Source: Tubulanus polymorphus (taxonomy: Eukaryota; Animalia; Nemertea). Taken from it: a stretch of DNA of 64,000 nucleotides. Below the pieces are notes generated by a model. That model saw only the letters and a program-made list of their open reading frames with translations, had not been told where the DNA came from and made no database searches. Position 1 is the stretch's first letter; each line of letters opens with the position of its first letter. This document shows, piece after piece, positions 40,437 through 64,000 of the stretch. Where the stretch lies: assembly GCF_964204645.1 (NCBI RefSeq), contig NC_134029.1, positions 19,214,950 to 19,278,949 on the forward strand, given 5' to 3'. Made by a program: the position numbers and the translations under genes.

Positions 40437-40872
40437 GGGTCATCCTTATTACGGAGATGACGTATTTTACCGAGATGAACCGAGATGAAATGAAATATAG
40501 CATATCTATTTATTCGTTATCGATTTTAACACTTGAAATCATGTTATATCAGTAATAAATACCTCCTAGAGTCATATTTTACATATTTTTTTTATTTAAA
40601 AAAATTTTGATTACAAATACGAAAACTTGGTTAGCAATAGAATTTCATTGAATTTGATTGATCGAAGATCTCATCTCGGTAAAGTTAAGTTATTTTTCTA
40701 CAAAAATATCCGAAAAAATATGTAAAATATGACTCCAGCAGGCATTTATTACTGATATGATGTCAATTGTTAAAATCGATAAGGAATAAATAAATATGTT
40801 ATATTTTATTTCATCTCGGTTGATCTCGGTTCATCTTGGTAAAATACGTCATCTCGGTAATAAGGATGACCG
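40437..40872. mobile_element. Foldback MITE with long imperfect TIRs and 8-bp TSD
   Basis: GGTCATCCTTATTAC... / ...GTAATAAGGATGACC arms (~150 bp, CCGAGATGA subrepeats); ATTAAAAC duplicated at 40429-40436 and 40873-40880. Confidence 0.85.
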
Positions 40873-43587: not shown

Positions 43588-46500
43588 GAATGATGATGGT
43601 GATGAGGAAGAATCTGGGTATGATTTGGGAAAATTGTTGAATAAGCCAAATCTATCCGATTCCTGCTAATTATAGACCTATTCTTTTTCATTGTAGCTTC
43701 AATTTAGAAGATGTTGATGAGGATAATGAAAATGATGACAAAATAAAACACATACCTTTCAAAACTGCGAAACTGTTGTCCGACGACGAAGAAGATAACG
43801 ACGCGTCTCAGAAATCATCGTTTGAAAAGCGACAAGAAAGGGTATGAAATATCATGGAGGCTATCATCCATTTCAAGGGTCTTAATCCACCTCAATTCTT
43901 ACCTACTTCCCTATTTCACATTTTGAATTGGAGCATTAGATTTAAAAGAAATTGTAAACGAGACAGTCAAATTGATAGAATGGAACCTCTTTTATAATGA
44001 ACTCGGATACAATGATTCATCGGATATAACAAATATAGAATTTCGTCCAAAGTATGTTAGACAATTTGATTAATTTCATACTGGATATAACAAACTATCG
44101 GTTATAACGAACATATTTTCTGGTACTGTGTAAGTTCATCGTTACAAAGTTCCGCTGTAGAGCAAAAAACAAACAAGGCGAATTATATTTGAAGATAACA
44201 AGAGAAATCCCACAATAAGTTCAGCCAAAACGAGAAACTTGAATAGAAGAGTTATATATATTTGCGCAACGTTTCGGCTAAAGACTATTAGCCATCATCA
44301 GGCGTACTGAGTACAGGAGAATATTACAAGATATTTATACAAGACCAAAACAATAGAAGCAGAGTGAGTGATTAAATTTGGTCTTGTATAAATATCTTGT
44401 AATATTCTCCTGTACTCAGTACGCCTGATGATGGCTAATAGTCTTTAGCCGAAACGTTGCGCAAATATATATAACTCTTCTATTCAAGTTTCTCGTTTTG
44501 GCTGAACTTATTGTGGGATTTCTCTTGTTATCTTCTTACACGGATATTGTGTATCTTCTCGTCTCATATTTGAAGATCATCAATCCATTATCCACTTCTA
44601 TTGAGCTTTGGCCATGCGGTCCCTGAAATGAATTTCGGTGTGTTTGTGTCATCGCGATATTCTTACCTTCAGTTGCAAAAGCGCATAAGAGAAATGGAAG
44701 ACGTCGCTTTGATGGAGAAACCGTGGCAGCTGTCTGGTGAGGTGACCGGTGGTAAACGTCCTGAGAATAGTCTGCTTCAAGAAAACGTACAGTTCGACCA
44801 AACGGCAAGACCAGGTTAGAACTACTGAAATGATGACGATTAATAAATAAGTAGAGTTATGTTAAACAACGAATATACATGCAAATCTACATTAGATCAG
44901 TTTGATTCTGATTGTGGATAGCGATATCTGGGTAGATTCTACTGCTAAATATGATGTGTGTACCATTTGTAATTTTGGGTTGAAATACTCTATTTTCAGC
45001 TCCAGTCATTACAGAAGAAACGACTAAGCAGTTAGAAGATCTAATAAAGCAGCGCATTAAAGATCAGGTTTATTATCAATCGAGACGTTCTTTACTAGAG
45101 TTAAGGTATTACAATCGGAATGACGTTTGACGGGACTAATTTTCGGTTAATATTTGCATGTAGGCGTGGGATGATGTCACGCGCAAGATTAAACCAAAAG
45201 ATGCGCCGTACGAGTACAAGAAGCGCATCACACTCGATCAGGAAAAGAGTAAGATTAGTCTCGGCGAAGTTTACGAACAGGAATATATAAAACAGACGGA
45301 GGTAAATTGGCCGTTTTGACTGGAATTTCATTTGCCTCACCTGGAATTGATCGTGGTTCTGAAATCGATGATCTGTTCACATTTTAGGAAGAGGCTGAAG
45401 AGAAAGCCGACCCGCAACATGAGGAAATCAAGAAAATGCTGGAATCGCTGTTCATTAAGTTAGACGCTCTTTCTAATTTCCACTATACTCCGAAACCAGT
45501 AAGTATACTGTTCTGTTTTACAAAATGAATCCAAGCGAAACAAAAAATGCATTTAACCTTCTGTAAGTCGGATAAACACTTAAGTCAGAAGAAAAGGTCG
45601 AATATGGCTATTTTCTCATTCGGAAATATATTTTTGTCCCAAAATTGCATATTTGAAATCGGGAACTTACTTGCCTAAGTTGGTAGTATTCTTACGGTGC
45701 GAACAATTAGGATTGTATCAAAACAACTATGGTAGCTGTATGAAGCTATTCATGTGATATTCCCGTCATTGAACCAAACATGCTACAATACAGGGAATAC
45801 ATGTAGGCCCCGCCTCTGATTCAACAAGATAAGTTGAGACGTGCTACATATAAGTTAAAGACCTAAGATTAAACACTCATTTTTTCGAAAGTTTGAAATT
45901 CTGACTTTCTCATACTCAGAATTTTTCTAATTCAAAGAAAATGATCCAGTTGCGAAAGATGCAAAATACGCATGGTTTACTGTATCAGCGTGAAATCATT
46001 GATGTTGATTCAGAATCTGGCTTCTATATATGATAGAGACTTAATGGCTTAAAATCTGTTCATTTCAGGCTATGCCAGAGGTAGAAATAGTCAGTAATTT
46101 GCCGTCAATAGCGATGGAAGAGGTTGCGCCAGTCAGTGTTAGTGATGCAGCGATGTTGGCGCCTGAAGAAATCCAGGTGAGAAAAAAGATAATCTATAGT
46201 ATTATGAAGTGAAATTTGCTCATTCTGTATGAGTTAGGTTGATATTGTCCTATTTTTTTTGTACGATACTTCTAGAAATGTTGTACAAATTCAACCTTGT
46301 GTAGAATACGTTGAACGAGACGGATAGTGCTTTATAAGTTAATTTGTTTATTTGAAGTACGGGCTTTCGCTACTGATGTATATTAACTTTATCAGTGAAT
46401 AAAATCTCTCATTCACGTGATGAAGCTACAATACATTGGTGGCGAAAAGCTCATATTTTATCAGATATCTTGTTTATATGTATGAGCTTTCAATACTAAT

Positions 46501-48137
46501 GTAAAGTAGCTTCATCAGGTGACTGAGAAATTTTCTTCACCTGATGAATTTACAATACATTAGTGGCAAAAGCTTGTACTTCAAATGAACAAATTAACTT
46601 ATAAAGTACTTTCCGTTCCGTTTTACACGTAGAAGAAATTAAAACTTCTCTAGTTCGAGCAGAACCATGTGTTTTATCAGGGTCCCTACGACTCCTTGAT
46701 TCCTTAAAAACTCCTAAACAGAAATTACTTTTAAAGGTACTTGAAACTCCTTTAATTTGGGCAAAATGCCCAAAACTCCTTTGAAACTCTTCAATTTTGA
46801 GAAATAGGCAACTAAGATATTTGTTGTTGCACAATAAACTGTGCCTGAATCGATACTGTTGGATTTTCACCAGGATTCTTTAGTAATGTAAAGCATGAAA
46901 ATTTGCTTACAAAACCACAGAATTATCCGTTCACCTAAATAGCTTAAACAGTACCAATTTAGGAGCAGTTTACAGTAATTGGAATATAAAAGTGATGCAG
47001 AATTTGAAATTTCCTCCTTGAAATCTCCTTATATCCGGCAATGACCAATCTGTAGGGACCCTGGTTATTCTGATTCATATCGATGCTCCATTCATCATGA
47101 TTTTCATCATTCATCATTTTTTGTGTTCAATCTCAAGGAGAAGAATCGCGGCATCGAAATCGGAAAAAGCGAACGAACCGAAACCGACAAGAAGCGCGAT
47201 CGACGTAAGATAAAAACGGCGAAGCGCAAGAAGATCAAGGAGAAAGAACAACGCGAGAAACTCGTCGAAAAAATCAGACCGGGTTTGGGTAACAAGTACA
47301 GTAAAGAACGAGCGCTTTCCGAACTAGAGAAGGCTAGTAAAGCAACGGATAAACTCAGCCTCATTAAGGTATATTTCAGAATATGATCAGATTTTATAGT
47401 ATGGATACTGAGTAGGGTTCATGATGGAACCTCTTTAGGATGAATGTGATGTAACGAATTATTGAATTTAACAAACCTAGATTTTTGTCCACAATGGTCC
47501 GCTGATCGCTGGTCCACCGAAGTTTGTTGTACTACCGCGGTACTTTTCACCTCGTTCAGGATATTCAAAAACATTTTATGTGTAGTTTTATCTTTCCTTC
47601 TTGAGTGAAAAGTTTTTTCAAACAGTTGAATAGATAAGTAGATTAATTTCGTGATTGCAACAGAAAGAAAGTGGAGAAAGCCAAATTAAAGTTGAGGAAG
47701 CTCTATAACAAAAATGTTTGATACAATGTAGACTCTATAATCAGGTCTACTTGGAATGACCCAAGGCTGTATATTTGACATATACATTTTTGGAAAGCCT
47801 TTCAATTTTCTTGATCCTCAAGTAGATATCTAGATATCTAGATAACTTGGTGGCCAACATTACTGGATAAGGCAAAGTCCACTAAACTAATGAATTGTTC
47901 ATCTAACTGATGTCAAATGAAGATTGAATGCTTGCATACATGTACGAAACATTTATCGTAGTTGTTGCTTATGTATATTTCTAGGATAAATCTAGTTCTG
48001 CTAAAAAGTCTCTGACCTCGTCGAAACAGTTCTTCAACCAATTGCAAGATGAAGTTACGTCCCATATAAATCGTCAGAAAGGGGCGCCGCAAGTGAAGAA
48101 AAAGCAAAAAAGTTCCGCTACAAAATTGATGTTGTAA
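42008..48137 (+). CDS. MPHOSPH10: U3 snoRNP protein MPP10, 11 exons, ~669 aa
   Basis: Exons 42008-42105, 42519-43197 (alt donor 43209), 43481-43617, 43697-43841, 44673-44814, 45000-45067, 45164-45301, 45388-45498, 46069-46176, 47138-47368, 47985-48137; sum 2010 nt. Mpp10 motifs [119 protein letters not shown] at 48181. Confidence 0.95.
44191..44535. mobile_element. Inverted Penelope-like pLTR remnant (159-bp arms, 27-bp spacer) in MPP10 intron 4
   Basis: 44191-44349 is the reverse complement of 44377-44535; each arm holds a minimal hammerhead core, as is typical of Penelope-like element pLTRs. Confidence 0.75.
44420..44463 (+). ncRNA. Minimal type I hammerhead ribozyme motif (mirror copy 44263-44306 on minus)
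   Basis: CGC-CTGATGA-T-GGCTA(ATAGTCTT)TAGCC-GAAAC-GTT-GCG: conserved core boxes, 5-bp stem II, palindromic AACGTT in place of stem III, short stem I CGC/GCG. Confidence 0.7.
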
Positions 48138-49535
48138 AAGTGAATCTAGAAATATTTTGTATATAAATAAATTAATTGTAAATAAAACTAAAAGTATTTA
48201 GAATCATTGACTTGCTGGTATTTTTTTGGAAGATTGCAGAAGTTAGAATATTCATATATTGGAATCATTGCCATCCTGTATCGTGGCGTATCCGAATTTT
48301 TGCGAATCAATCGGGATGAATTGACTCGTCAGGGCCGTACCTGGCATTATAATTTTTTTTGGTGGGGGGGGGGGAGGTACCTGAAAAAGGGCAATTCTAT
48401 AGGATAAAACAAATTGTAAAACTGCTCTTTCCAAAATTTCTTGGGGGAGGGCCTTGCAACCCCCCCTTTAAATACGGCAAGCCATCATTCTGCTCATATC
48501 ACCTTGATTAACTTAAAATCGTCTAACGTCGGATATCTCGTTCGTGGTGTAAGCAAATAACACATTCAACGGTTGCGTTTACTAAAATTTAAATTTCGTG
48601 AATTCAAAAATTGAAACGTAACTAAAATAACTACCGTATTTGACTCGTATTGCACGTCTTCCACTCGGGAGTAATTTTACTTAGTCGGTGATTTAACCGA
48701 ATGTGAGTTTGCTACAAGAAAGAACTCCGTTTACAAGACTAAAACCAAAGGGTAGGTTACCCTCGGGATACTTCCTAATAGGCATGAAGTGGGGAACCAT
48801 TTATAGGTAAAACTTCATGTTTCCAGGAGGATTTCGACCCCGAAAAACTTATAATCACATCCTTCCTAGACAGAGATTCGAACCTGATGGAATCGCTCGA
48901 CTCGCTTGTATCCAAATTTCGAAAAATCTTGACAAAACGTTTCCGACACTGACATTTTGAAGTGCACATAGAGAAGTTTATTAGGCGTTCGTTCGCAGGA
49001 ATCCCTCCCTGGATCCGTCACTGGGCAGGCCCTCGTTCCGTGGCGCGAGTCTCGATACCACCAGGTTCTTGCCTAGGGAGGATGTTATAATCACAGATGT
49101 ATGACCGCTGTTAGGATGGTGCGTTCGTTGCACGCGAAGTACATCTGCGAAAAAGATTAAAACATCATGTGAGAAGTTAATATTCAGGAAACCTGTACGA
49201 TGCGAAAATAATTAGAAATCGGCATGTACGACACGTGGAAACATAAAACTGAAAATTGCTGCATTTATAGATTGGTTGGTAATTACTGGGAAGCTCGTTA
49301 TTTTTGTCATTTTAGAATCTCGGAAAATCGAACTTTTAATGATGGATCAGATATCGCTCAAAGATAATCAGCGGCTGAAAAATTGAGAATTCTGTATTGC
49401 TGAGGGAAGTGAATAATTCCAAACATACGTTAGTATAATCTGTTAAGAGCGGCCTTAGCCTGGCGTGACAACCAAGCTGTGGAATTCAAATAGTGAAGGA
49501 ATTTTGTTCTTTGTATCGTAAAGAAATTGTTCGTT

Positions 49536-52500
49536 ATGAATCGGCAGCTGTGGGGGCTGTTTATAGCGTCAATGATCCTCTGTCAAGTTTGCATCGCACG
49601 CGCTGATCGCGTAGAATCTATCGAGGAATCGTCAGTGACGGTAAGTTCGTCTTGTAACAACACGTGGTACCCCATCGATTCTACATCTGGTTATATCGTT
49701 TCACCAAATTATCCTTCGTTAACACGCGGCGTTGAATGTCGCTGGTTAATCAACAGCTCTTTACCAGGAGCCGTTCAAGTTTACTACGACATCGATCCGT
49801 CAATATTCTGTAGTGACAACTACCTTCTCGTCCATGAGTCTGATAACAGATTGTGCGGTGATGGAAAACATGATATCCGCAGTAGCGATTTTATACCGTT
49901 GATGTTTAGGAGTAACGTCGATGGTGCGCGGGGTAGCCGGGTTTTTGTCATATATCGTTACGAACGAAACCGATTGAGAATTAGTCACAACTGTCGATAC
50001 AACTTCTATTTAGATAAACTCAATTCGTCAACTGGTTATAAATTCTTCTTGAAAAGACGAGGGATGCCTAATTGCAAATTATTTTTGAATCGGATCGGAA
50101 TATCACGGGATTATGCGATGAATCTCACATTCATTCAGATCATACTCAAATATCAACCTAGACGTCAATCTACCACTAAAATCCACGATGGATGGAATAG
50201 CAGTGATCCCATTGGTATTATACGAAAACAAACTGGATATCCACCATCATCATTTTATACAAAAACAAACAAAGCCCTCATTTCTTTAAATGTTCCAACT
50301 CAGTTCAAGCTTTTTGTTCAGCTGTATAAGATATCAGATTGGAACGTCTCTAATCCATTGATTCGGATCTCAGATAACGAGTCGTCGGGAGTGCTCATAC
50401 CTAGTGACAAGAGCTTACACGTAATAACCCGATCAAAACACTTACACTGCTGGTCTATCACAGTGCAGGTATTACAGTACGTCATATTCAACTGGACCAG
50501 TGATCTCATCATATCCGGTGACGTCATTGCTGTATATAAACTAGAAGGATTACGTATTGTAGGAACTGATATCTTGCTCGGTTACAACTACTTGGAATCA
50601 TTGAATGTCAAAACCGACGGCTTTCTCGTCATACTATGCGTTTTATTGAGGATGGAAGCAGAAAAGTTGCTACAAAAGTTCAACTATGAAATTAAATCGC
50701 ATTCTTTAGAAGACATGTACGTCTACAAATACCGAGTGAGTATTAGGCCTAAATGATATACTTGAATGCATGTGTTACCCGATTTCTCTTATAGAAGTGT
50801 TTCTATTTTCCAGGTGTTATACTGGCGTGCTCACTATTTGAGACATTCCCAACTTTTTCAATACAAAACGAAATCGATTTACAGAATCAAACGTTTTGAT
50901 TTTAAATGGAATGTCAATATCTATGAAGAAACGGACTTTCAATTTTCAGTTTTATCAGAGAACTGTGAGCGAGCTGGATTTTATATATATGATGGTGGCA
51001 ATTTCACAGCTAGACGCTGTGGTCCGTATTGTCCTGGTTCAAAGGAAGGAGGTTACGGTCGATCTATGATCAGCCTGGTTACATCAGGAGGACCGGTTCT
51101 TATAGTAGCATACGCATACAAATACCTGCCGAGAAAATCTCCGTCAAGACTAGTTATTCGCTCTACTGACTGTGACGGGTATGTTCTACAAGAAGGTGAA
51201 CGTCAAATCAATATAACGTCACACTGTCTTGTGATTACACCAGAAACCCGACGCATTGTTTTCACAAATATTCAAGTGTTATCAAAAAAAGAATATGAAA
51301 TTGGTGATTGTTTGCATAATATTGCACCATCAACAATGAGCTGCAAACGGATCCTAAGTCTCAAGAGTGATATACTGAATAACAGTGTCGTATCGTATAC
51401 CGTGAAATTACGATTTAATAACGCATTGCTGAACTATCGATTTATAATCAAACTGCAAACCAAATGTCAGAGGTTGAAAAAGACTCGAAAAGACTACACG
51501 GGGGTGATGTCCTTCGTAAAGAATGAATGTGGTTTGATACAGTCAGATAATTTCCCAGAAAATGCCGGATATAAACTTCAAACTGTATACTATGCATTCG
51601 GTTGGATGGGATACATTAATTACTTTTATAGATTTTATAGATTCATAATAAAATACATAAGCAAGAGAGTGCCATGTATGGGATCACCAGGATTAGACAA
51701 AACCCCAATCATTCTCAAACAATTTGTTAATGATATATCTAGAAGACAGATCACGCACGAATATAAAATATGCGATAAAAGAGCCGAAGTGGGTACTGTA
51801 TTTTACAGCCTTCTTAGTTACAACTTAGGGCTCGAGGTAAAAAGTCGAGTCCCAACATTTCGAATACAATATACATTTGAAAGACCGCCATCAATAGATA
51901 CGCGTGATAGACCGTGTCGTTCAAAATTTCGGGATTCGGGAATTTCATGCGTAAACTATATCAGAGATGAACGTCTGAATTGGGAGAATGCAGAATTGTA
52001 CTGTAGGCAGAAGTTTGCGGGACATTTACTCAGTGTCAACTCAGAACAGGAAATGACTTCCATGAAAAAATTATTCGCTACATCCTTTCTGCATAATGCA
52101 TATTCACAGAAAGCACTCCTAATGATGATTGGATTAAAACTGCAGGTGAATCAGAATTGAAAATAAGTTACATATGGGAAGTTTTCATATAAGAAAACAG
52201 TGTATTTTATCTTCTATTTTGATTTTTTTTCAGCCAAGTTCTGGTCATTACACGTGGACTGATGGGAAACCATTAAGCTACACTGAGTGGTATAAACCTA
52301 CAAATAACGACACGATACCAGAAGTATTACAAGGATTCATATCTCCTTTAAGAAAACAACCGATAAATGACGTCGATATGCCATGTACAGCGATGGTACT
52401 AAATAATCCACGAGGATCGGCGAACTGGTTTCGATTCCCCTGCAAATTCGAAGAGGTTCACTCGAGTTTCATGTGTGAAACAGAAAGAATCGAAAATTTT

Positions 52501-55485
52501 AAGAATGTAAATGCAAAGTTTACATCTACGAACAATGAAACATATTTGATAGGACAAAATGTATTTCAAGACGCCGGTTTCAATGAATCGAGTTGTTCGA
52601 TTGGTTGGGTAAGCATAAATAAACAATGCTATCAAATACTGACAGACTGGAACAAAGATCGAGTTTTAGATATGATAACTGCGGCAGCGATGTGTCATGC
52701 TATCAATGGTGAAATAGTTACTGCTACGATAAGTTACACAGAAACTGAAACTATGAACTTAGTAAGAACATTTAGCTACCAGCCTGTATATAGCTCTATA
52801 CTAACAATGGCTTCTAATGATAGACTGCTAATTATAAACCCAAAAATAACTAGAGATGAAATAACTTATATTCAATCAGTTAAATGGACGACGAAACAGT
52901 TTGATAATGCGACAGATACAGCGCACTCTGTCTTGTGTTCTTACAACGCAACTAGTGATACGTTAGCTTCTACAAGCAGTTGTAAATCGTGGCAGTTTAA
53001 ATGTAACGATCAAAGATGTATTAGTGACCATCGTGTATGTGACACCAGACACGACTGTCATCACGGTGAAGATGAATTCAACTGTACGGATATAAATAAT
53101 CTATATAGTCAGTTTCAGTGCTATGATGGCCAGGTCATATCAATGAGTGGTTTCTGTGATTTCATGCACGATTGTGCGGATGGTTCTGATGAGAACTCGT
53201 GTTTTCATCCCGCGTGTTTGTCCGAACAATTTCGCTGCAACAGTGGGCGATGTATCAGTCGGTCAAACAGGTGTGACGGAGTCACTGATTGTAAAGACGG
53301 CTCCGATGAAAGTGGATGCACCGCTCAACTGTGCCAGGGGTTCTTGTGTAACAGTGGTGACTGCATTAGTTCTCAGTTGTATCAAGATGGTGTCGTGGAT
53401 TGCAGTGGAAGCCTCGAAGAAGATGAATTAGTGACAGCTACTAATGTTACAATGAATCCTACGATTGAATGCAATAATGAGAACCATTGTACATTTAACT
53501 TCACAAATCTCTGTAAAGCTTCGGACGAACAAAGATGTTCTTTCAATTCTCCGCATTGTTATGCAAGACGTCATAGATGTATTCTAGAAAGAACAGCAAA
53601 TGGTAACCCAGTTTGTAGAAATCTTGAGCACGTATTGAGATGTGAAGAATTTGAATGTCCAGCTAGTACCGTAAAATGTCCAACATCGTACTGTATACCA
53701 ATCAGACAGGTATGCGATGGTCAATCAGATTGTCCTAATTCAGAAGATGAAAAAAACTGTGAGACATTTACATGCCCACGTATGTTCAAATGTGGCCAGG
53801 AAAATCGATGTATTCCACAATCTGAAGTTTGTGATGGCGTCATAAATTGTAAGCATACAACTGATGACGAGGCTTTCTGTAACGTCACCTGTCCGAGAGG
53901 TTGTACATGTCAAGGCTATTTAATTGATTGTAAAAATACTGGTTTAACAGATATCACTCGCCTTTTCCCACCATCAACTCGGGTTTTGGTTTTATCAAAT
54001 AACCGAATCATCTTGAACGCGTCGACGTTATCGTTATTTGTCTATCTTCGTATGCTCAACATCTCCTCCAATGAATTTTCCTATATTTTACCAAACTTGT
54101 TCAAAAACCTGAATAATTTACATACATTAGACCTAACGTATAACAACATAAGATCATTATCCACAAACACATTCACTGGTTTATATAGTTTGAAAGAGTT
54201 ATTCATAACTGAAAATCCACTACGTCATTTGATGGACGATACCTTCCAAGATTTGAAGTCACTTAAAGTTCTTAATCTTGATGGACTTTCCTTATTGGTG
54301 CTTGGTAGAAATGTATTTCGAGGTTTATCTACATTACATTCGTTGAATATCAGCACTAACAGAATCAATCGTATTTCAAGATATGCATTTTCTGGATTAA
54401 CTTCACTTGAAATGCTAGATATAACCAATAACTACAAAGTTATTTCTGTCGACAAAGATGCTTTCAACAACATGACATCTCTAGTCTTTCTAACGTCTGA
54501 TGCTTACAAATTTTGCTGCATGGCTCCTAATGTTGACCAGTGCCTTCCTGAAGCTGACCAATTTTCCTCCTGTTCTGATCTGATGGGTAATACAGCCCTT
54601 AGAGCTATCATCTGGGTAATCGCTGCATTTAGTTTTTTCGCTAATGGAATTGTCATTTCTCTTCGCATTCATGCGATATGTTTCTCCTCAAATCCATCCT
54701 CAGACATCATCATCATTAATGTTGCTGTGTGTGATTTCATGATGTCTATATATCTATTTTTGATCGCGGGAGCCGATCACATTTATAGAGGTATTTACTT
54801 CCTAAATTCAGAATCATGGACGGACAGTTTGTATTGTCGTCTTGCGGGGGTCGTGGTGTTTATTTCTTGCGAAGGTTCATTGACATTTTTGCTGGTAATG
54901 ACGCGTCACAGATTATCAAATATAGTTAATCCATTTTCTGGAAACCCGATTACATCTATAAGATATGTGTGCGTGATTTGTTGTACCTGTTGGATTGTCT
55001 TAAGTGTCATTGCACTACTACCACTTATGCCAGTCCCATACTTTGGAAGCAACTTCTACGGTACTACAGGAGTTTGTTTACCTATGAATTTAATTTCAAT
55101 TGATGTTAGTGCCTGGCAATATTCATTCGCTATTTTCTCTTTATCCAACTCGCTCATACTAGCTACGATAATGGGGACTTATTTTCAAATGTACAGACTC
55201 GTATCTGGAAGCAGGTCTGGTTCGGGTAGAGCTGATCCTACCGAACTGATTCTGGCACGTAGGAGTTTGGTAATAAATCTTTGTAATTTATTTTGCTGGC
55301 TGCCGTTAATAATTGTTCAGTTTTGCGCGGTATTTCGTGTAGAAATACCGAATCAGGTGGCGGCTTGGCTAGCGGTTCTTTTCTTACCGATAAACTCGTC
55401 TCTCAATCCCCTTCTTTACACTATACTGACTATTGATATGAAATCCATACGAGCTAAAACTAAACGCTGGCAACATAGAAAATGA
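49536..55485 (+). CDS. GRL101-like LDLa/LRR rhodopsin-class GPCR with N-terminal CUB-like and C-type lectin domains, 3 exons, ~1927 aa
   Basis: Three supplied ORFs join in phase 0: 49536-50735 (GTGAGT donor), 50814-52145, 52234-55485; introns 78 and 88 bp. Signal peptide MNRQLWGLFIASMILCQVCIARA; CUB (GYIVSPNYP..CRWLI); CTL (LNWENAELYC..GHLLSVNSEQE..IGL..WTDGKPLSYTEW); multiple LDLa (CDGVTDCKDGSDE); LRRs; hinge YKFCC..C.P..DQFSSCSDLM; 7TM with LPINSSLNPLLYT. Confidence 0.9.
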
Positions 55486-56797
55486 AAATAAAATAGCTAC
55501 GTGTATATTCCTACCCAGGAATGGAGTGGCATTACCAGTCAGTACGATGTTTCAATTGTATTTTCTGGTGGGGATATTTCATGTTAGAACATAATTTCAT
55601 ACGTGTACTAGACACCACACTAAGAATATTTAGTTCACCGATTTTTCCACATTTAATGTTTATCATCACTTTCACTGATGCAATGTTAGTACTTCGTATC
55701 GATAATGGAAACAATGAATGCTTTGACTGGGTATCAAGTGTCAATATCTGCAATGAATGTGGGGGAGATATTATGATGGCTGACACGATATAACAATTAA
55801 TGAACGCATTTTTTTTTCGCCCGGATAATTAAAACTTTATCGGTTTCGCAGGTAAAAAAATTTCTCGGTCAAGAAAACCAAACCTTTTGATTTTGACTTC
55901 TCGTGCTAGAAAATTTGCGTTTATATTAAAGTTTATGATCGTGCGTTAAGGCATACCGAAATACTATGCGTATTTTTTTAGTATAGCTCGTATTAGCTAC
56001 CGTAGGTAACAGCTTGCTCATTTATTTACCTGGCACTCGCTAATAAATCAAGTCAGGTACCACTGCGAAGACGCGAAGACAACCCGAGGGGATGACAACT
56101 GAGCTATAGTTCTTTTGATCTTAAAATATGGATTGTCCCTGTTATTTATTTGGTTGGTAAATTTCGTTTGATTTTTTGATTGGATGTCCCTTACAGACCC
56201 ACCACCTGCCGGAAGCGAAACAGGGGTTTGATTTTGAAATCGGACTCGGAATTCGAAGTACAGATATAGTTGTGTGATCGGCGGTCGAGTTTACAAAAGT
56301 ATTTTGTTTAAATCGAAGTACATAATTGGGAAATTCGGTTCCGGTTCATTCAAGCAATCTTCCATTCAGTCTGAACCGGCAAGCGACCGATTGGGTTGAA
56401 TTTTCTTGGCTGCCTAATTTAATACATCGAAATTTTGGAAATAGCTATATTACAAGGTTGAAGATCATTTTGTCCATTTTCAATTTTTTCTGTCGTTTTC
56501 TATACGTGTAAATAGTCCGATAGTTTATTTTAGTTTTTTTTCGGATAGGTGTTGATGTAGAAGTCCTCTAAGTTGATTTTCCTGCGTTTTGACTAGATAG
56601 AAAGGAAGCACATTTCGAAACGCTAATTTTCCAGATGAGAGTATCCGAAGTGTAGTTGTATGACATCGACGGGGCAGCTCCGATAGGATGGGTATCTCCG
56701 TCAAGGGGTGCGCAGTTGATACTTCACATCTGGTGCTGAGTTTGCCTAAAAATAAAAGTTGTACACAGGGAGCAGTTTTGTGTTTCTGATGAATGTA

Positions 56798-56876
56798 GGA
56801 AAAATGGCCAAGGAAAGAATGGCCAAGGTATTTGCCCAGGAAAAAATGGCCACGGAAAAAAAGGCCAAGGAAAATT
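56798..56876 (+). repeat. Modular 14-15-bp GGAAAAA(A)TGGCCAA repeats, candidate terminus
   Basis: ggaaaaatggccaa / ggaaagaatggccaa / ggtatttgccca / ggaaaaaatggccac / ggaaaaaaaggccaa / ggaaaatt read directly. Confidence 0.85.
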
Positions 56877-56970
56877 TATGAGAACTACTGACAATGTTAA
56901 TAAACATTAAGCTTTCAATTTAATGACATCATTTATTTTTCATGGGGCTAAAACAATCAAAATCGGTATA

Positions 56971-57244
56971 ATGAGTTCAGAAATTTGATGAACTTACATT
57001 TAATTTCATTGCATATAATATACAGTGCATAGGTGGATGCGTAGATGAGAGTGAGTTCCAACTAGAAAACAATAATGTCAATAAAAATCAATATTATTGT
57101 CAATATTGTAAAAAATACATCGATAAATCTTACATGGAAAATGTTAGAAATTATATTGATTCACTAGAAATAAAAGATATAATTAAAATTTTAGAAATAT
57201 TACGTAATAAAATTGTGACACACATAAACAGTGAGTGCGCGTAA
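56971..57244 (+). pseudogene. Small Cys-motif ORF, apparently frameshifted just after its ATG
   Basis: Open frame 56975-57244 (VQKFDELTFNFIAYNIQCIGGCVDESEFQLENNNVNKNQYYCQYCKKYIDKSYMENVRNYIDSLEIKDIIKILEILRNKIVTHINSECA*) has no early ATG; the ATG at 56971 is one base out of frame. Confidence 0.4.
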
Positions 57245-57309
57245 CAACAGCTGCTTTTTTTTTGCTTTTTTCCAAAAATAAACACACTTTTTAATATAAA
57301 AGCGCTAAT

Positions 57310-57592
57310 AAAATGATAAAATTGTTCAATATTAAAAGTGTGAGTAAAGTGTGAGTAAAATAATTGAGATTTTCAATATTAAAAGTGTGAGTAAAGTGTG
57401 AGTAAAATAATTGAGATTTTCAATATTAAAAGTGTGAGTAAAGTGTGAGTAAAATAATTGAGATTTTCAATATTAAAAGTGTGAGTAAAGTGTGAGTAAA
57501 ATAATTGAGATTTTCAATATTAAAAGTGTGAGTAAAGTGTGAGTAAAATGATAAAATTGTTCAATATTAAAAGTGTGAGTAAAGTGTGAGTA
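57310..57592 (+). repeat. 47-bp tandem repeat, ~6 copies
   Basis: Unit AATATTAAAAGTGTGAGTAAAGTGTGAGTAAAATAATTGAGATTTTC starting 57328, 57375, 57422, 57469, 57516, ~57563; internal AAAGTGTGAGT doublet. Confidence 0.95.
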
Positions 57593-57609
57593 ATAATTTT
57601 GTTATAAAA

Positions 57610-58523
57610 ATGAAGAAAGAAGAACCCAACTTCAAAATCGAAATCAATGAACCCAATAAATCATTTTCACAGTTTAACATTAAAAATTATATTTCAGCAA
57701 CAAATTTAGTGTCCGCAAGACATTATAAAATTGATAATATTACTGTAATTAATCAAATATTATTAAATGAAACTTATTTAATTACTGAACTAATAGATAC
57801 TTTAGATAATGGCGCCAAAAATCCTAAAATATTTAATACAGTTTTAAATTATAAAGGTAATTTAGATGAAAACATAATAAATATTCTTAAATGTCCTTTT
57901 AATGAAAGAGAAAGTGATATAATACTTTCAAAAGGTAATGATAGGATAGACTTAAGAATTGAAAAACGACAATTATATTATTATAATTTTGATAATAAAC
58001 AAATTATCTATAATGAAAATTCATCAAATATTGGAATTCAATGTGATTTAGATAATGAAAAATCATATAAAGATGTTGCAGTTCAATGTAACTTAGATAA
58101 TGAAATTGTTACGCCTAAATATGAACCTAATGAAAAAGTGTTATGTGATTGTGGAAAATATTATACTCGAAGCAATAAATCCCACCATCTTAAATCAAAA
58201 TATCATAACTCGAAATTAATAATTCAACTCTAAAAATCAAAACAAATAACATAAGAAAAGACTTAACAACATTAAAACATAATTTTGATTTTCGCAATTA
58301 TCCCAAAGATCATGAACTATTTAGCAATGATAATAAAAAGATTCCGGATTTAGAAAATAGTAAATCTTTTAAACATATCGCAATTCAATGTGATTTAGAA
58401 AATGAATTCAAAAGATTTAATCCTAATGAAAAAATTCATTGTTATTGCGGAGGTAAATATTCAAAATCACATAAATCAAAGCATTACCAAACAATTAAAC
58501 ATAAAAACTGGTGTAAAGAGTAA
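57610..58523 (+). pseudogene. Intronless virus-like double C2H2 zinc-finger protein split by a -1 frameshift near 58209
   Basis: ATG 57610, first frame to 58233 ends ...PNEKVLCDCGKYYTRSNKSHHLKSKYH. An overlapping ATG-less frame 58209-58523 ends ...IAIQCDLENEFKRFNPNEKIHCYCGGKYSKSHKSKHYQTIKHKNWCKE*, repeating the QCDL + PNEK + CxCG..H..H module. Confidence 0.65.
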
Positions 58524-58596
58524 CAATTCTACATTGAAAATAAATTAAATAGTCAAATAATTATTGAATTTAGTTAAATGATTTAAATATTTAATA

Positions 58597-60772
58597 GACT
58601 GTTGAAATGATAAATTGTTTGGCTGTTAAAATGATAAATTGTTTGACATTTGAAATGATAAATTGTTTGACTGTTGAAATGATTTGACAGTTGAAATGAT
58701 AAATTGTTTGACAGTTGAAATGATTTGACAGTTGAAATAATAAATTGTTTGACAGTTGAAATGATAAATTGTTTGACAGTTGAAATGATAAATTGTTTGA
58801 CAGTTGAAATGATAAATTGTTCGACTGTTGAAATGATAAATTGTTCGACTGTTGAAATGATTTGACAGTTGAAATAATAAATTGTTTGACAGTTGAAATG
58901 ATAAATTGTTTGACAGTTGAAATGATAAATTGTTTGACAGTTGAAATGATAAATTGTTCGACTGTTGAAATGATAAATTGTTCGACTGTTGAAATGATTT
59001 GACAGTTGAAATAATAAATTGTTTGACAGTTGAAATGATAAATTGTTTGACAGTTGAAATAATAAATTGTTTGACAGTTGAAATGATAAATTGTTTGACA
59101 GTTGAAATGATTTGACAGTTGAAATAATAAATTGTTTGACAGTTGAAATGATAAATTGTTTGACAGTTGAAATGATAAATTGTTTGACAGTTGAAATGAT
59201 TTGACAGTTGAAATAATAAATTGTTTGACAGTTGAAATGATAAATTGTTTGACAGTTGAAATGATAAATTGTTTGACAGTTGAAATGATAAATTGTTTGA
59301 CTGTTGAAATGATAAATTGTTTGACAGTTGAAATGATTTGACAGTTGAAATAATAAATTGTTTGACAGTTGAAATGATAAATTGTTTGACAGTTGAAATG
59401 ATAAATTGTTTGACAGTTGAAATGATAAATTGTTTGACAGTTGAAATGATAAATTGTTTGACAGTTGAAATGATAAATTGTTCGACTGTTGAAATGATAA
59501 ATTGTTTGACAGTTGAAATGATAAATTGTTCGACTGTTGAAATGATAAATTGTTCGACTGTTGAAATGATTTGACAGTTGAAATAATAAATTGTTTGACA
59601 GTTGAAATGATAAATTGTTTGACAGTTGAAATAATAAATTGTTTGACAGTTGAAATGATAAATTGTTTGACAGTTGAAATGATAAATTGTTTGACAGTTG
59701 AAATGATAAATTGTTCGACTGTTGAAATGATAAATTGTTCGACTGTTGAAATGATTTGACAGTTAAAATAATAAATTGTTTGACAGTTGAAATGATTTGA
59801 CAGTTGAAATAATAAATTGTTTGACAGTTGAAATGATAAATTGTTTGACAGTTGAAATGATAAATTGTTTGACAGTTGAAATGATAAATTGTTTGACAGT
59901 TGAAATGATAAATTGTTTGACAGTTGAAATGATAAATTGTTCGACTGTTGAAATGATAAATTGTTTTACAGTTGAAATGATAAATTGTTTGACAGTTGAA
60001 ATGATTTGACAGTTGAAATAATAAATTGTTTGACAGTTGAAATGATAAATTGTTTGACAGTTGAAATGATAAATTGTTTGACAGTTGAAATGATAAATTG
60101 TTTGACTGTTGAAATGATAAATTGTTTGACAGTTGAAATGATTTGACAGTTGAAATAATAAATTGTTTGACAGTTGAAATGATAAATTGTTTGACAGTTG
60201 AAATGATAAATTGTTTGACAGTTGAAATGATAAATTGTTTGACAGTTGAAATGATAAATTGTTTGACAGTTGAAATGATAAATTGTTCGACTGTTGAAAT
60301 GATAAATTGTTTGACAGTTGAAATGATAAATTGTTCGACTGTTGAAATGATAAATTGTTCGACTGTTGAAATGATTTGACAGTTGAAATAATAAATTGTT
60401 TGACAGTTGAAATGATAAATTGTTTGACAGTTGAAATAATAAATTGTTTGACAGTTGAAATGATAAATTGTTTGACAGTTGAAATGATAAATTGTTTGAC
60501 AGTTGAAATGATAAATTGTTCGACTGTTGAAATGATAAATTGTTCGACTGTTGAAATGATTTGACAGTTGAAATAATAAATTGTTTGACAGTTGAAATGA
60601 TTTGACAGTTGAAATAATAAATTGTTTGACAGTTGAAATGATAAATTGTTTGACAGTTGAAATGATAAATTGTTTGACAGTTGAAATGATAAATTGTTCG
60701 ACTGTTGAAATGATAAATTGTTTGACAGTTGAAATGATAAATTGTTTGACAGTTGAAATGATAAATTGTTTA
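58597..60772 (+). repeat. 24-bp minisatellite with interspersed 17-bp variant (left arm)
   Basis: Unit TTGACAGTTGAAATGATAAATTGT; variants TCGACTGTT, AATAAT and 17-mer TTGACAGTTGAAATGAT; block 59338-59759 recurs at 60143-60564 (805-bp offset). Confidence 0.97.
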
Positions 60773-60895
60773 GCTGTAAATTTAATTGTTATTTGATTTA
60801 ATCATTTAAAAGTTTAATATTTTAAAAATGATTTTAAAATATTTAAATAAAAACAAGCAAATGTTTATTAATTTTCTAATTTCTTTCTTAAATAA

Positions 60896-61114
60896 ATGGA
60901 TGGTTTCATTCCAACTGGGAAAAGTGATTTAAAACATTATTTAGTTGCTGGAGGTTTAATTTTAGCTGCGCTTTACTTTTATTATGAAAATATTTCAAAA
61001 GATTTAATAAATGAAAATAATAAATTAAGCAAGAAAATAAAGAAGTTAAATACTAAAAATGGAAATAATTATAAAAACGGTAATAATCACAAGAAAGTTG
61101 TTGAATCAGATTAA
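60896..61114 (+). CDS. 72-aa hypothetical membrane protein (left-arm copy)
   Basis: TAAATG start; hydrophobic helix YLVAGGLILAALYFYY followed by a basic/Asn-rich tail; intact mirror copy on the other arm. Confidence 0.6.
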   Translation: MDGFIPTGKSDLKHYLVAGGLILAALYFYYENISKDLINENNKLSKKIKKLNTKNGNNYKNGNNHKKVVESD

Positions 61115-61150
61115 ATAGTGAATTAATCTATTAAAATCTTTTCTTATTAA

Positions 61151-61432
61151 ATGAGTGAAAATATATTAAATTTGTTAAATCTTATTTACAGAAATCAAGA
61201 GAAAATGAAATTAATTATGATGATTTCAGGGTTACTTTCATTTTCAGTTTATAGTTTGAAACAATTGTTTCATTTTTATGATGATTGTAAAATAAAATAT
61301 ATTGAATTGAAAAATAATATCAATTACATTTCAGATAGAATGAATAATATTAAAAGATGCGAAATTTGTAGTAAAAAATACAAGACGGAAAAAGGATTTA
61401 GAAATCATAAAATTGGGCATAAATTGGAATGA
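61151..61432 (+). CDS. 93-aa hypothetical protein with hydrophobic segment and C-terminal C2H2 finger (left-arm copy)
   Basis: TAAATG start; LIMMISGLLSFSVYSL; CEICSKKYKTEKGFRNHKIGH fits C-x2-C-x12-H-x3-H. Confidence 0.65.
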   Translation: MSENILNLLNLIYRNQEKMKLIMMISGLLSFSVYSLKQLFHFYDDCKIKYIELKNNINYISDRMNNIKRCEICSKKYKTEKGFRNHKIGHKLE

Positions 61433-61869
61433 TTAAATAACAAATTAAAGTAAAGAATTTAAAAAAAATCTCATTTATTGTGTAAAATTGAAATACTTTG
61501 AACTACGACTAAAATTAAACTAAAATAGACAACTTTGTTTATCTAATGAAATTTTAGTTATATTTTAGTTGAATTGTAATTAAAGTTAGTTGCAACTAAC
61601 TTCAACTAGAATTTAACTAGAATTGACTAAAAATTTAAAAAGATTAACAAGACAGTTGATTTAGTGTATTTTTAGTCAATTCTAGTTAAATTCTAGTTGA
61701 AGTTAGTTGCAACTAACTTTAATTACAATTCAACTAAAATATAACTAAAATTTCATTAGATAAACAAAGTTGTCTATTTTAGTTTAATTTTAGTCGTAGT
61801 CCAAAGTATTTCAATTTTACACAATAAATGAGATTTTTTTTAAATTCTTTACTTTAATTTGTTATCTAA
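61433..61869. repeat. Non-coding palindrome core with 33-nt asymmetric centre (61635-61667) and nested hairpins
   Basis: Arm AATTGACTAAAAAT ends 61634 and its mirror starts 61668; perfect 20-bp palindrome AAGTTAGTTGCAACTAACTT at 61583-61602 and 61700-61719. Confidence 0.95.
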
Positions 61870-62151
61870 TCATTCCAATTTATGCCCAATTTTATGATTT
61901 CTAAATCCTTTTTCCGTCTTGTATTTTTTACTACAAATTTCGCATCTTTTAATATTATTCATTCTATCTGAAATGTAATTGATATTATTTTTCAATTCAA
62001 TATATTTTATTTTACAATCATCATAAAAATGAAACAATTGTTTCAAACTATAAACTGAAAATGAAAGTAACCCTGAAATCATCATAATTAATTTCATTTT
62101 CTCTTGATTTCTGTAAATAAGATTTAACAAATTTAATATATTTTCACTCAT
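61870..62151 (-). CDS. 93-aa C2H2 protein (right-arm copy)
   Basis: Identical translation to 61151-61432. Confidence 0.65.
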   Translation of the reverse strand: MSENILNLLNLIYRNQEKMKLIMMISGLLSFSVYSLKQLFHFYDDCKIKYIELKNNINYISDRMNNIKRCEICSKKYKTEKGFRNHKIGHKLE

Positions 62152-62187
62152 TTAATAAGAAAAGATTTTAATAGATTAATTCACTAT

Positions 62188-62406
62188 TTAATCTGATTCA
62201 ACAACTTTCTTGTGATTATTACCGTTTTTATAATTATTTCCATTTTTAGTATTTAACTTCTTTAATTTCTTGCTTAATTTATTATTTTCATTTATTAAAT
62301 CTTTTGAAATATTTTCATAATAAAAGTAAAGCGCAGCTAAAATTAAACCTCCAGCAACTAAATAATGTTTTAAATCACTTTTCCCAGTTGGAATGAAACC
62401 ATCCAT
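62188..62406 (-). CDS. 72-aa membrane protein (right-arm copy)
   Basis: Mirror of 60896-61114 with one I->L change (61037 vs 62265). Confidence 0.6.
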   Translation of the reverse strand: MDGFIPTGKSDLKHYLVAGGLILAALYFYYENISKDLINENNKLSKKLKKLNTKNGNNYKNGNNHKKVVESD

Positions 62407-62529
62407 TTATTTAAGAAAGAAATTAGAAAATTAATAAACATTTGCTTGTTTTTATTTAAATATTTTAAAATCATTTTTAAAATATTAAACTTTTAAATGA
62501 TTAAATCAAATAACAATTAAATTTACAGC

Positions 62530-64000
62530 TAAACAATTTATCATTTCAACTGTCAAACAATTTATCATTTCAACTGTCAAACAATTTATCATTTCAACAG
62601 TCGAACAATTTATCATTTCAACTGTCAAACAATTTATCATTTCAACTGTCAAACAATTTATCATTTCAACTGTCAAACAATTTATCATTTCAACTGTCAA
62701 ACAATTTATCATTTCAACTGTCAAACAATTTATTATTTCAACTGTCAAATCATTTCAACTGTCAAACAATTTATTATTTCAACTGTCAAATCATTTCAAC
62801 AGTCGAACAATTTATCATTTCAACAGTCGAACAATTTATCATTTCAACTGTCAAACAATTTATCATTTCAACTGTCAAACAATTTATCATTTCAACTGTC
62901 AAACAATTTATTATTTCAACTGTCAAACAATTTATCATTTCAACTGTCAAACAATTTATTATTTCAACTGTCAAATCATTTCAACAGTCGAACAATTTAT
63001 CATTTCAACAGTCGAACAATTTATCATTTCAACTGTCAAACAATTTATCATTTCAACAGTCGAACAATTTATCATTTCAACTGTCAAACAATTTATCATT
63101 TCAACTGTCAAACAATTTATCATTTCAACTGTCAAACAATTTATCATTTCAACTGTCAAACAATTTATCATTTCAACTGTCAAACAATTTATTATTTCAA
63201 CTGTCAAATCATTTCAACTGTCAAACAATTTATCATTTCAACAGTCAAACAATTTATCATTTCAACTGTCAAACAATTTATCATTTCAACTGTCAAACAA
63301 TTTATTATTTCAACTGTCAAATCATTTCAACTGTCAAACAATTTATCATTTCAACTGTCAAACAATTTATCATTTCAACTGTCAAACAATTTATTATTTC
63401 AACTGTCAAATCATTTCAACTGTCAAACAATTTATCATTTCAACTGTCAAACAATTTATCATTTCAACTGTCAAACAATTTATCATTTCAACTGTCAAAC
63501 AATTTATCATTTCAACTGTCAAACAATTTATTATTTCAACTGTCAAATCATTTCAACTGTCAAACAATTTATCATTTCAACAGTCAAACAATTTATCATT
63601 TCAACTGTCAAACAATTTATCATTTCAACTGTCAAACAATTTATCATTTCAACTGTCAAACAATTTATTATTTCAACTGTCAAATCATTTCAACTGTCAA
63701 ACAATTTATCATTTCAACTGTCAAACAATTTATCATTTCAACTGTCAAACAATTTATTATTTCAACTGTCAAATCATTTCAACTGTCAAACAATTTATCA
63801 TTTCAACTGTCAAACAATTTATTATTTCAACTGTCAAACAATTTATCATTTCAACTGTCAAACAATTTATTATTTCAACTGTCAAATCATTTCAACAGTC
63901 GAACAATTTATCATTTCAACAGTCGAACAATTTATCATTTCAACTGTCAAACAATTTATCATTTCAACTGTCAAACAATTTATCATTTCAACTGTCAAAC
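62530..64000 (-). repeat. 24/17-bp minisatellite, inverted (right arm), runs off window
   Basis: Reverse-complement unit ACAATTTATCATTTCAACTGTCAA. Confidence 0.97.

Follow-up and report, generated by a model that had tools for sequence, protein, structure and literature searches.

What kind of element is a near-perfect palindrome that carries protein-coding genes on both arms and, in the arm seen, no enzyme to move them? Within the window (i.e., the whole 64,000-nt stretch of Tubulanus polymorphus DNA that was analyzed), an earlier note had described an AT-rich, mirror-ordered block, and 1-kb bins bear this out: GC content was 0.20-0.25 from 57001 onward versus 0.29-0.60 in the 57 preceding bins. 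The palindrome is real: the unique arms, 60617-61634 and 61668-62685, mirror each other about an axis at 61651 with 3 mismatches in 1018 bases, and the 24-bp arrays prolong the mirror, with 2333 bases of symmetry measured through the satellite up to the window end, where at least 2.3 kb had been claimed. Thus, over its inner 2.3 kb, the mirror shows long, modular inverted arms that contain tandem repeats; the right arm's outer 2.1 kb falls beyond the window. If the right arm mirrors the left, the mirror would end at ~66.1 kb and the element would measure ~9.3 kb, rather than the ~66.5 kb and ~10 kb first estimated. The features are:

56788-56872, + strand: putative left end, a 10-bp terminal motif and five 12-15-bp subterminal repeats (TRF period 15, unit split, contig ends)
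56975-57244 (stop to stop), + strand: Cys-rich frame of 89 codons, with no start before CxxC
57325-57593, no strand: 47-bp tandem array, 5.7 copies (TRF)
57610-58233, + strand: 207-aa ORF, an N-terminal domain without assignment plus a CxCG...H...H zinc finger (ORF list, sequence matches)
58209-58523, + strand: second finger-bearing frame, without ATG, a partial tandem duplicate of the C-terminus of the 207-aa ORF
58597-60771, no strand: left 24/17-bp satellite array, 95 units in a higher-order arrangement (TRF and unit typing)
60896-61114, + strand: 72-aa ORF with one hydrophobic stretch (ORF list; constrained across copies)
61151-61432, + strand: 93-aa ORF with a hydrophobic stretch and a C2H2-like finger (ORF list; constrained across copies)
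61519-61665, no strand: nested imperfect palindrome, 79% AT, tip at 61592/61593, including the loop and mirrored at ~61637-61783
61635-61667, no strand: 33-nt loop at the symmetry axis 61651
61870-62151, - strand: mirror copy of the 93-aa ORF, protein identical (ORF list)
62188-62406, - strand: mirror copy of the 72-aa ORF, differing by one residue (ORF list)
62531-64000, no strand: right satellite array, 64 copies of the 24-bp unit, continuing past the window end (TRF and unit typing)

This arrangement agrees with the block order proposed earlier (12-15-bp end repeats, 47-bp array, 24-bp array, 72-aa ORF and 93-aa ORF were all located), and the 72-aa and 93-aa ORFs and their mirror copies all face the centre, as had been stated. 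The 47-bp array ends 17 bases ahead of the ATG of the 207-aa ORF. In the satellite, the order of unit types is common to both arms, but blocks were gained or lost between them. MINCLTVE frames within the arrays were rejected as genes, being by-products of the repeats. A 9-mer is common to the loop and the array unit (it is reached in 385 of 20000 shuffles and in none of 55 control windows), a weak and post hoc observation.

Protein-primed polymerase, integrase, capsid or packaging genes are hallmarks of Polinton/Maverick elements and Polinton-like viruses. None of these was found in the arm seen, where the longest non-array frame has 216 codons, nor was a MULE DDE transposase, or any core viral gene or mobility enzyme; the absence of transposase, integrase and polymerase that the earlier note had asserted thus holds for that arm under ORF lists, Pfam and profile searches. 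Rfam gave no match in 55500-64000, and all PHROGs matches were at E>0.005 and of unknown function.

The explanation we favor, at a probability of roughly 0.55, is a non-autonomous Mutator/Foldback-type transposon in which fold-back repair recopies the second arm from the first. The left end and the arm seen support the earlier proposal of a self-complementary, non-autonomous element with Foldback/Mutator-like ends; assignment to the MULEs is suggested by end anatomy, at the left end, the right end lying beyond the window. Several lines of evidence argue for the transposon: i) the anatomy of the left end, with five 12-15-bp repeats at 56798-56867, fits published animal MULE/Foldback ends (the repeats had been noted before, but the start given then, 56791, gives way to 56788, which the ends of X1 contigs make more likely); ii) X6 depth falls inward, from 277-395 reads at 56929-57055 and 57183-57300 to 167-182 in the 72-aa ORF and 17-21 over the loop (against 4-8 in the flank at 55532-55785, which is single-copy), as if ends were common to many copies and interiors were not, a fall that may also reflect AT bias and the 85% cut-off; iii) eight X1 contigs of the flanking repeat run on without the element behind 56787 (agreement 0.58, loose contig ends). 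Among the records listed, none spans the left junction; the end motif had no match in the viral contigs scanned, and no described element with such a motif was found in the literature. Elsewhere in the window, a palindromic element flanked by an 8-base repeat (40438-40871) also counts for the transposon.

Next to the left end, the cysteine-rich frame reported earlier exists, but not as an ORF with an ATG ahead of its cysteines: the first ATG is codon 54, downstream of CxxC. Its match to zf-U1 was weak (E 0.014, below cut-off). As 570 X6 reads depart from the window sequence at 57130 and one X1 contig rejoins at 57255, the 3' half of this frame appears to have been replaced in the window copy, in which the two outer ORFs are interrupted.

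The element is a repeat family, not a single accident, because both its depth and its variants are multicopy: X1 depth at the loop was 573-600 versus 30-35 for single-copy contigs, and at position 61652 11 of 19 X6 reads differ from the window. The loop and the sequence to its right are also covered by reads of a second sample, from a second study; 17-19 X6 reads lie over the 33-nt loop, and X6 depth was 12 at 61686-61717 (3 of 562 reads fit two places), while in X2 depth was zero beyond 61493. Many X6 reads depart from the window sequence behind 60993 and 61051, and one X1 contig joins the arm at 61411 to the opposite strand at 61673, possibly a joint of the single-hairpin type; in X6, no joint of that type reached 3 reads. 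The short reads showed no pile-up of molecule ends at any site, a negative that does not decide against free hairpin-ended molecules. Among arm sites variable in other copies, 38 of 39 bear one letter common to both arms, and 465 of the 562 X6 reads are <95% alike to the window. The marine metagenome X5 contributed only 4 and 5 short matching pieces, which were not counted as evidence.

Copy differences (the 40 with best support out of 236, tallied by site rather than by event and without phasing) point to coding constraint on the two inner ORFs. In the 72-aa ORF, 7 of 8 listed differences were synonymous and the only listed indel was of 3 bases; in the 93-aa ORF, 7 of 12 were synonymous and none hit codon position 2. 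For both together, the synonymous fraction was 14/20, versus 21% expected (p ~4e-6). As a pattern in the sequence, constraint across copies is thus shown, and the genes on both arms are apparently in working order. The 93-aa ORF matched zf-C2H2_jaz at E 0.0005, below cut-off.

The claim of virus-like cargo is weaker than put forward: of the fingers, only one, CxCG...H...H, looks viral. The 207-aa protein had 20 matches at E<=0.001, in 18 of which the best stretch lay within residues 138-206; P0003 additionally matches residues 39-131. This finger is common to unnamed metagenomic proteins, one of which has a GIY-YIG domain too, and the profile match extends over the finger alone: no Pfam match to a GIY-YIG catalytic domain was found at E<=1 in the 207-aa ORF, and its N-terminal 160 residues scored no better than shuffles against P0002, P0009 and P0021. 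The Atlas clusters are virus-dominated, with scores <0.9 (0.85 for a viral GIY-YIG endonuclease, a lead only). At least one finger probably entered the element from a Polinton-like or large DNA virus. The supposed double-finger ORF does encode two fingers, but in two separate frames (57610-58233 and 58209-58523), the second of which lacks an ATG and repeats the C-terminal 55 residues of the 207-aa ORF. Viral contigs scanned with the 207-aa protein and a two-row alignment yielded no relative, and a word-indexed homologue search at near lengths yielded nothing for the 207-aa, 93-aa and 72-aa ORFs. Two metagenome loci (of 289 candidates) were rejected: their matches were short and of low complexity, and at the DNA level neither resembled the arm. 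Two AlphaFold models had pLDDT 32 and 42, a fold search found no match at E<=0.001, and in a PDB sequence search the best E was 0.08; no fold was assigned.

The centre had been likened to a poxvirus junction. An AT-rich, incompletely paired hairpin is present, with 118 of 156 columns self-complementary (76%; score 148 versus a maximum of 80 in 41 control windows) and a stability equaled by 1 of 200 shuffles (z -3.06). But it is not centred on the axis, its tip (61592/3) sitting 58 bases from 61651, and three of five listed family variants break its pairs while none compensates. One 8-base motif stands beside both axes (61507 and 61625). We infer that this nested 76% hairpin is the remnant of an older axis.

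For the favored transposon, the cycle may run as follows. A MULE-type transposase encoded elsewhere would bind at each outer end, to the 12-15-bp repeats, and the full 9.3 kb would be cut and pasted, with an 8-11-bp duplication left behind. The palindrome would break near its centre and a 3' end would loop back onto a short inverted repeat, with one arm then recopied from the other; such recopying, or arm-to-arm conversion, would keep the arms alike, and one event would have shifted the axis by 58 bases, leaving the older axis as the nested hairpin. In the weakest step, predicted by analogy with VANC in VANDAL MULEs, finger proteins would bind to arrays of the element itself, which lie immediately upstream of the genes, and sustain expression or mobility; a DNA-demethylation role like VANC's is doubtful because the host shows no CpG depletion (ratio 0.86-1.43). 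Arm recopying is favored because the copy-specific letters match between arms while most reads diverge from the window, and the axis shift because the 8-base motif adjoins both axes and the listed variants do not preserve the nested hairpin.

Coding constraint tells against the transposon, as it is unexpected for trans-acting cargo that serves all copies and better fits a self-replicating unit. Such a unit could be a small linear replicon with hairpin ends (satellite to either a large DNA virus or a Polinton-like virus) integrated as a head-to-head dimer, which we regard as unlikely: one arm would be the unit genome closed by an AT-rich hairpin, copying through would yield the palindrome, and a helper integrase or transposase would insert it. 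Arm identity (38/39) and coding constraint would then be explained in one step; moreover, the central hairpin (150 nt, 79% AT, with incomplete pairing), together with its reverse complement, resembles the flip/flop forms of vaccinia, the finger type is common to the GIY-YIG protein and virus-dominated Atlas clusters, and the X1 contig joining 61411 to 61673 could represent a copy that has one central hairpin only. However, in a concatemer junction the axis is the hairpin tip, no single-hairpin joint reached 3 reads in X6, poxvirus hairpins in PMC8956199 are 84-93% AT, three of the five listed variants break pairs without compensation, and neither a relative in the viral contigs scanned, nor a site of many molecule ends, nor a core viral gene was found. 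Rather unlikely, too, is a new kind of animal mobile DNA uniting transposon ends with a hairpin-ended replicon: it would exit as a single 4.6-kb hairpin-closed arm, be unfolded by replication to a palindrome with two ends, and reinsert, each cycle resetting arm identity, with small virus-type finger and membrane proteins selected in cis.

On the other hand, the palindrome might be immobile, an inverted duplication made by in-place fold-back repair of a gene-carrying piece of a larger element whose other copies are mostly non-palindromic. The far greater X6 depth of the left end and 72-aa ORF than of the centre, the many reads departing behind 60993 and 61051, and a mirror visible for the inner 2.3 kb only are consistent with this; yet the loop itself is multicopy with variants (in X1 depth and at 61652) and reads run on into the right arm, and we consider it unlikely as well. 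That the structure arose in library preparation or assembly, whether as a fold-back chimera or because two copies were wrongly joined at a short natural hairpin, is very improbable. None of the reads and contigs listed crosses the loop with 31 bases to either side of it, and the window stops short of the right end; but three substitutions and whole blocks of array units differ between the arms, unlike in a copy of one molecule, the arms have copy-specific letters in common, unlike two random copies, and X6 depth reaches 12 at 61686-61717 though only 3 of 562 reads fit two places. Misassembly, which the earlier note had named as a refuter, is thus unlikely from arm differences, array blocks and read cover of the loop, all in short reads and contigs.

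A family that is almost wholly palindrome, with arms kept matched and constrained protein-coding genes on both, is unusual: in the accessible parts of the literature compared, Foldback elements are either transposase carriers or non-coding. It would directly test how foldback arms are homogenized and why a non-autonomous element maintains genes. If a free form with hairpin ends exists, cut-and-paste elements and linear viral replicons would be connected by a new route of transposition. An open-access literature search found no description of a gene-carrying palindromic element of this kind; new here are the mostly synonymous copy differences, the 38 of 39 copy-specific letters common to the arms, and the nested hairpin. 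The earlier note had overlooked the membership in a repeat family, the coding constraint and the homogenization of the arms.

The following comparisons draw on the accessible portions of the cited sources. Muta1 and Muta5 of Aedes aegypti (PMC5225508) and Tm1 of Meloidogyne (PMC3169594) have a short terminal motif followed by 9-15-bp repeats, like the left end here, and non-autonomous derivatives alike at the ends only (many Muta1 copies have common ends and differing interiors); unlike here, their TIRs are ~150 bp, and non-autonomous Tm1 copies are described as lacking significant coding potential. The Tetris foldback of Drosophila virilis (PMC4079207) is also non-autonomous, with modular arms, internal tandem repeats and an unknown mobilizer, but its arms are shorter (<=1735 bp) and, as described, without conserved ORFs. 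VANDAL MULEs with the anti-silencing protein VANC (PMC5735166) likewise unite an accessory gene with fast-evolving non-coding tandem arrays, but they are plant, autonomous and non-palindromic; the likeness is one of layout, and array binding here is predicted. The poxvirus concatemer junction (PMC8956199) has inverted arms, tandem repeats and an AT-rich hairpin, incompletely paired, that occurs as two complementary forms, whereas here the tip is off-axis, the hairpin is separated from the arrays by ORFs, and genes for viral replication or a capsid are not seen. Long satellite-bearing arms are already known from Rehavkus-like foldbacks of Tribolium and leech, with satellites inside arms >11 kb long (bioRxiv 10.1101/2024.12.02.626372); Rehavkus-1_HR is 10,679 bp (PMC6446971). 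The likeness lies in very long inverted arms, satellite arrays of variable length and a size of ~10 kb. Compared by description, however, Rehavkus has a central region (with transposase if autonomous), whereas here the arms meet at a loop of 33 nt and each contains constrained ORFs.

Within the window, the palindromic element has the following parts.

56788 (putative left end) onward: left arm of the element
56975-57244: Cys frame
57325-57593: 47-bp array
57610-58233: 207-aa finger ORF
58597-60771: left 24/17-bp array
60896-61114: 72-aa ORF, mirrored on the right arm
61151-61432: 93-aa ORF, mirrored on the right arm
61519-61665: second, imperfect palindrome
61635-61667: loop
62531-64000: right 24/17-bp array, cut by the window end

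GC falls to 0.20-0.25 from 57001 onward, and about a symmetry axis at 61651 the arms (60617-61634 and 61668-62685) are complementary at 1015 of 1018 positions, with a 33-nt loop between them. The 72-aa and 93-aa ORFs are complete on both arms, and array ends lie 17 and 125 bases upstream of two start codons. The left and right 24/17-bp arrays have their order of unit types in common but differ by whole blocks, so that the right array is shorter; a fully mirrored right arm would stop near 66,096 by computation. The "double-ZnF ORF" of the earlier note resolved into two finger-bearing frames overlapping at 58209-58233, the second of which lacks an ATG and repeats the end of the first, while its Cys ORF has no start codon ahead of the cysteines in frame.

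Evidence from beyond the window came from public runs with the same species label: X1, which may be the source sample; X2; and X6, raw Illumina DNA from a different sample and study, of which 12% was read. Within the element, the comparison with these runs covered the sequence on either side of 57301-60789. Half of the 40 best-supported differences (of 236) were located in the two inner ORFs. Among these 20, 14 were synonymous (7/8 and 7/12) versus 21% expected (p about 4e-6, for unphased sites that are not independent events), and none changed codon position 2. Moreover, the sole ORF-internal indel of the six listed was 3 bases long, the other five (1 or 17 bases) being non-coding. This pattern points to translated, selected proteins, for which a homologue search, confined to near lengths, found no relatives.

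For the 207-aa protein, a HMMER search against 1.84 billion representatives returned 20 matches, none at 1e-10 and nearly all confined to the finger. None of ten relatives looked up was informatively named; all were metagenomic except one NCBI member, which carries Pfam GIY-YIG plus the finger. Atlas neighbours were virus-dominated GIY-YIG clusters (0.84-0.89; leads only). A GIY-YIG domain in the protein itself was not supported by domain, pairwise or profile comparison, and neither structure models nor a fold search gave a fold. P0003, an unnamed 269-aa metagenomic protein (1038-base contig) with an N-terminal domain and finger as in the 207-aa ORF, also aligned to the N-terminal part (score 84 vs 37 +/- 6 for shuffles, 0/500; best of 22 tested), thus placing the protein in a wider family. 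Only for the finger is a viral origin plausible.

X1 depth was 30-35 for single-copy contigs without differences and 337, 462 and 1779 for single arm contigs; X6 reads numbered 277-395 at the left end (two bins), 167-182 at the 72-aa ORF, 17-21 at the loop and 4-8 in single-copy flank. Depth not being a copy number, these values are taken to indicate no more than that related ends number in the tens and that there are several related centres. Eight X1 contigs diverge from the window past 56787, immediately ahead of a 10-bp motif and five 12-15-bp repeats, and we infer 56788 as the left end. The element appears inserted in a different and far more abundant repeat (56113-56787; X6 depth up to about 3600), which has a sharp left edge near 56113 and of which a diverged copy lies at 19686-19928 (minus strand). 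The segment 57130-57254 differs in sequence from most related copies, shows loose ends at 57130, 57214 and 57254, shares its final 40 bases with another repeat and is likely a captured or swapped piece.

The window is animal DNA. It carries cadherin exons, one exon of Mpp10 and, up to 55485, a long frame for an LDLa-LRR-7TM receptor. This frame is uninterrupted for 1111 codons (52150-55485) and highly multicopy (X6 depth 159-1741 over 53500-55531 vs 4-8 in flank), a large, intron-poor receptor expansion that is possibly mobilised; directly upstream, open frames at 49497-50756 and 50766-52160 resemble the receptor's CUB and lectin parts. Three small palindromic MITE-like elements (40438-40871, flanked by an 8-base direct repeat; 44191-44535; 46314-46622) and a dispersed repeat of ~300 bases (8447-8746, 13730-14019, 17338-17575, 25032-25265, 31735-32030; copies 75-89% alike, in cadherin introns and elsewhere) are also present.

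An artefact is very improbable: fold-back copying of one molecule is unlike the element, since the arms differ in substitutions and array blocks. In X6, position 61634 was covered by 17 reads and 61652 by 19, variants included, the mean depth was 12 at 61686-61717, and just 3 of 562 reads fitted two places; this depth thus suggests that reads cross the loop. X2 depth was absent beyond 61493, and the 21 pieces listed included no loop-spanning record. At 38 of the 39 listed arm sites at which other copies vary, the window's letter is found on both arms, and 17 bases absent from one X1 contig (depth 337 of 525) are present in both. Divergence is 0.3% arm to arm, and 465/562 X6 reads are <95% alike. 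One arm, by these comparisons, has been repeatedly reset to match the other by some process. A local inverted duplication is rather improbable.

The nested palindrome (118/156 columns, 79% AT, tip 61592/3) includes the loop, so the centre is a hairpin overlapped with its own reverse complement (117-bp period). It recalls the flip/flop forms of poxvirus ends, in which, according to the excerpt of PMC8956199, the tip coincides with the axis, whereas here it lies apart. Among five variants listed in the nested hairpin, three break pairs, two fall at unpaired sites and none is compensatory. Because the tip is off the axis, the variants are uncompensated and an identical 8-base motif occurs at 61507 and 61625, we prefer to read the nested hairpin as the probable fossil of an earlier axis that a fold-back event would have left behind. 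One X1 contig (depth 43), joining 61411 to 61673 on opposite strands, comes from a further head-to-head copy whose centre is different, and it fits either a fossil axis or a poxvirus-like hairpin. A dimer of a hairpin-ended replicon, which this resemblance would suit and the off-axis tip would not, is unlikely.

The element behaves like a foldback transposon and is a putative member of that class. Our main reading (probability roughly 0.55) is a foldback MULE mobilised by a transposase supplied in trans, in which one arm would be recopied from the opposite arm via fold-back repair or conversion, and finger proteins would act on the arrays before the start codons, as VANC does on VANDAL arrays (excerpt of PMC5735166). 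This last is the weakest step, and the absence of host CpG depletion makes a VANC-like role in DNA demethylation doubtful. In the portions cited, MULE target duplications are 8-11 bp (PMC6446971), the foldback form may arise in other superfamilies too (PMC4079207), and PMC6431247 and PMC9168764 contain no matching element. The left-end anatomy resembles that of Aedes MULEs, in which non-autonomous derivatives have common ends around variable interiors (PMC5225508), and of Tm1 (PMC3169594), as far as the excerpts describe them. Long satellite-bearing arms likewise occur in Rehavkus-like foldbacks, at >11 kb (10.1101/2024.12.02.626372, in part). In the literature searched, no element was found that combines genes under constraint on each arm, a middle consisting of a bare loop and near-complete arm identity.
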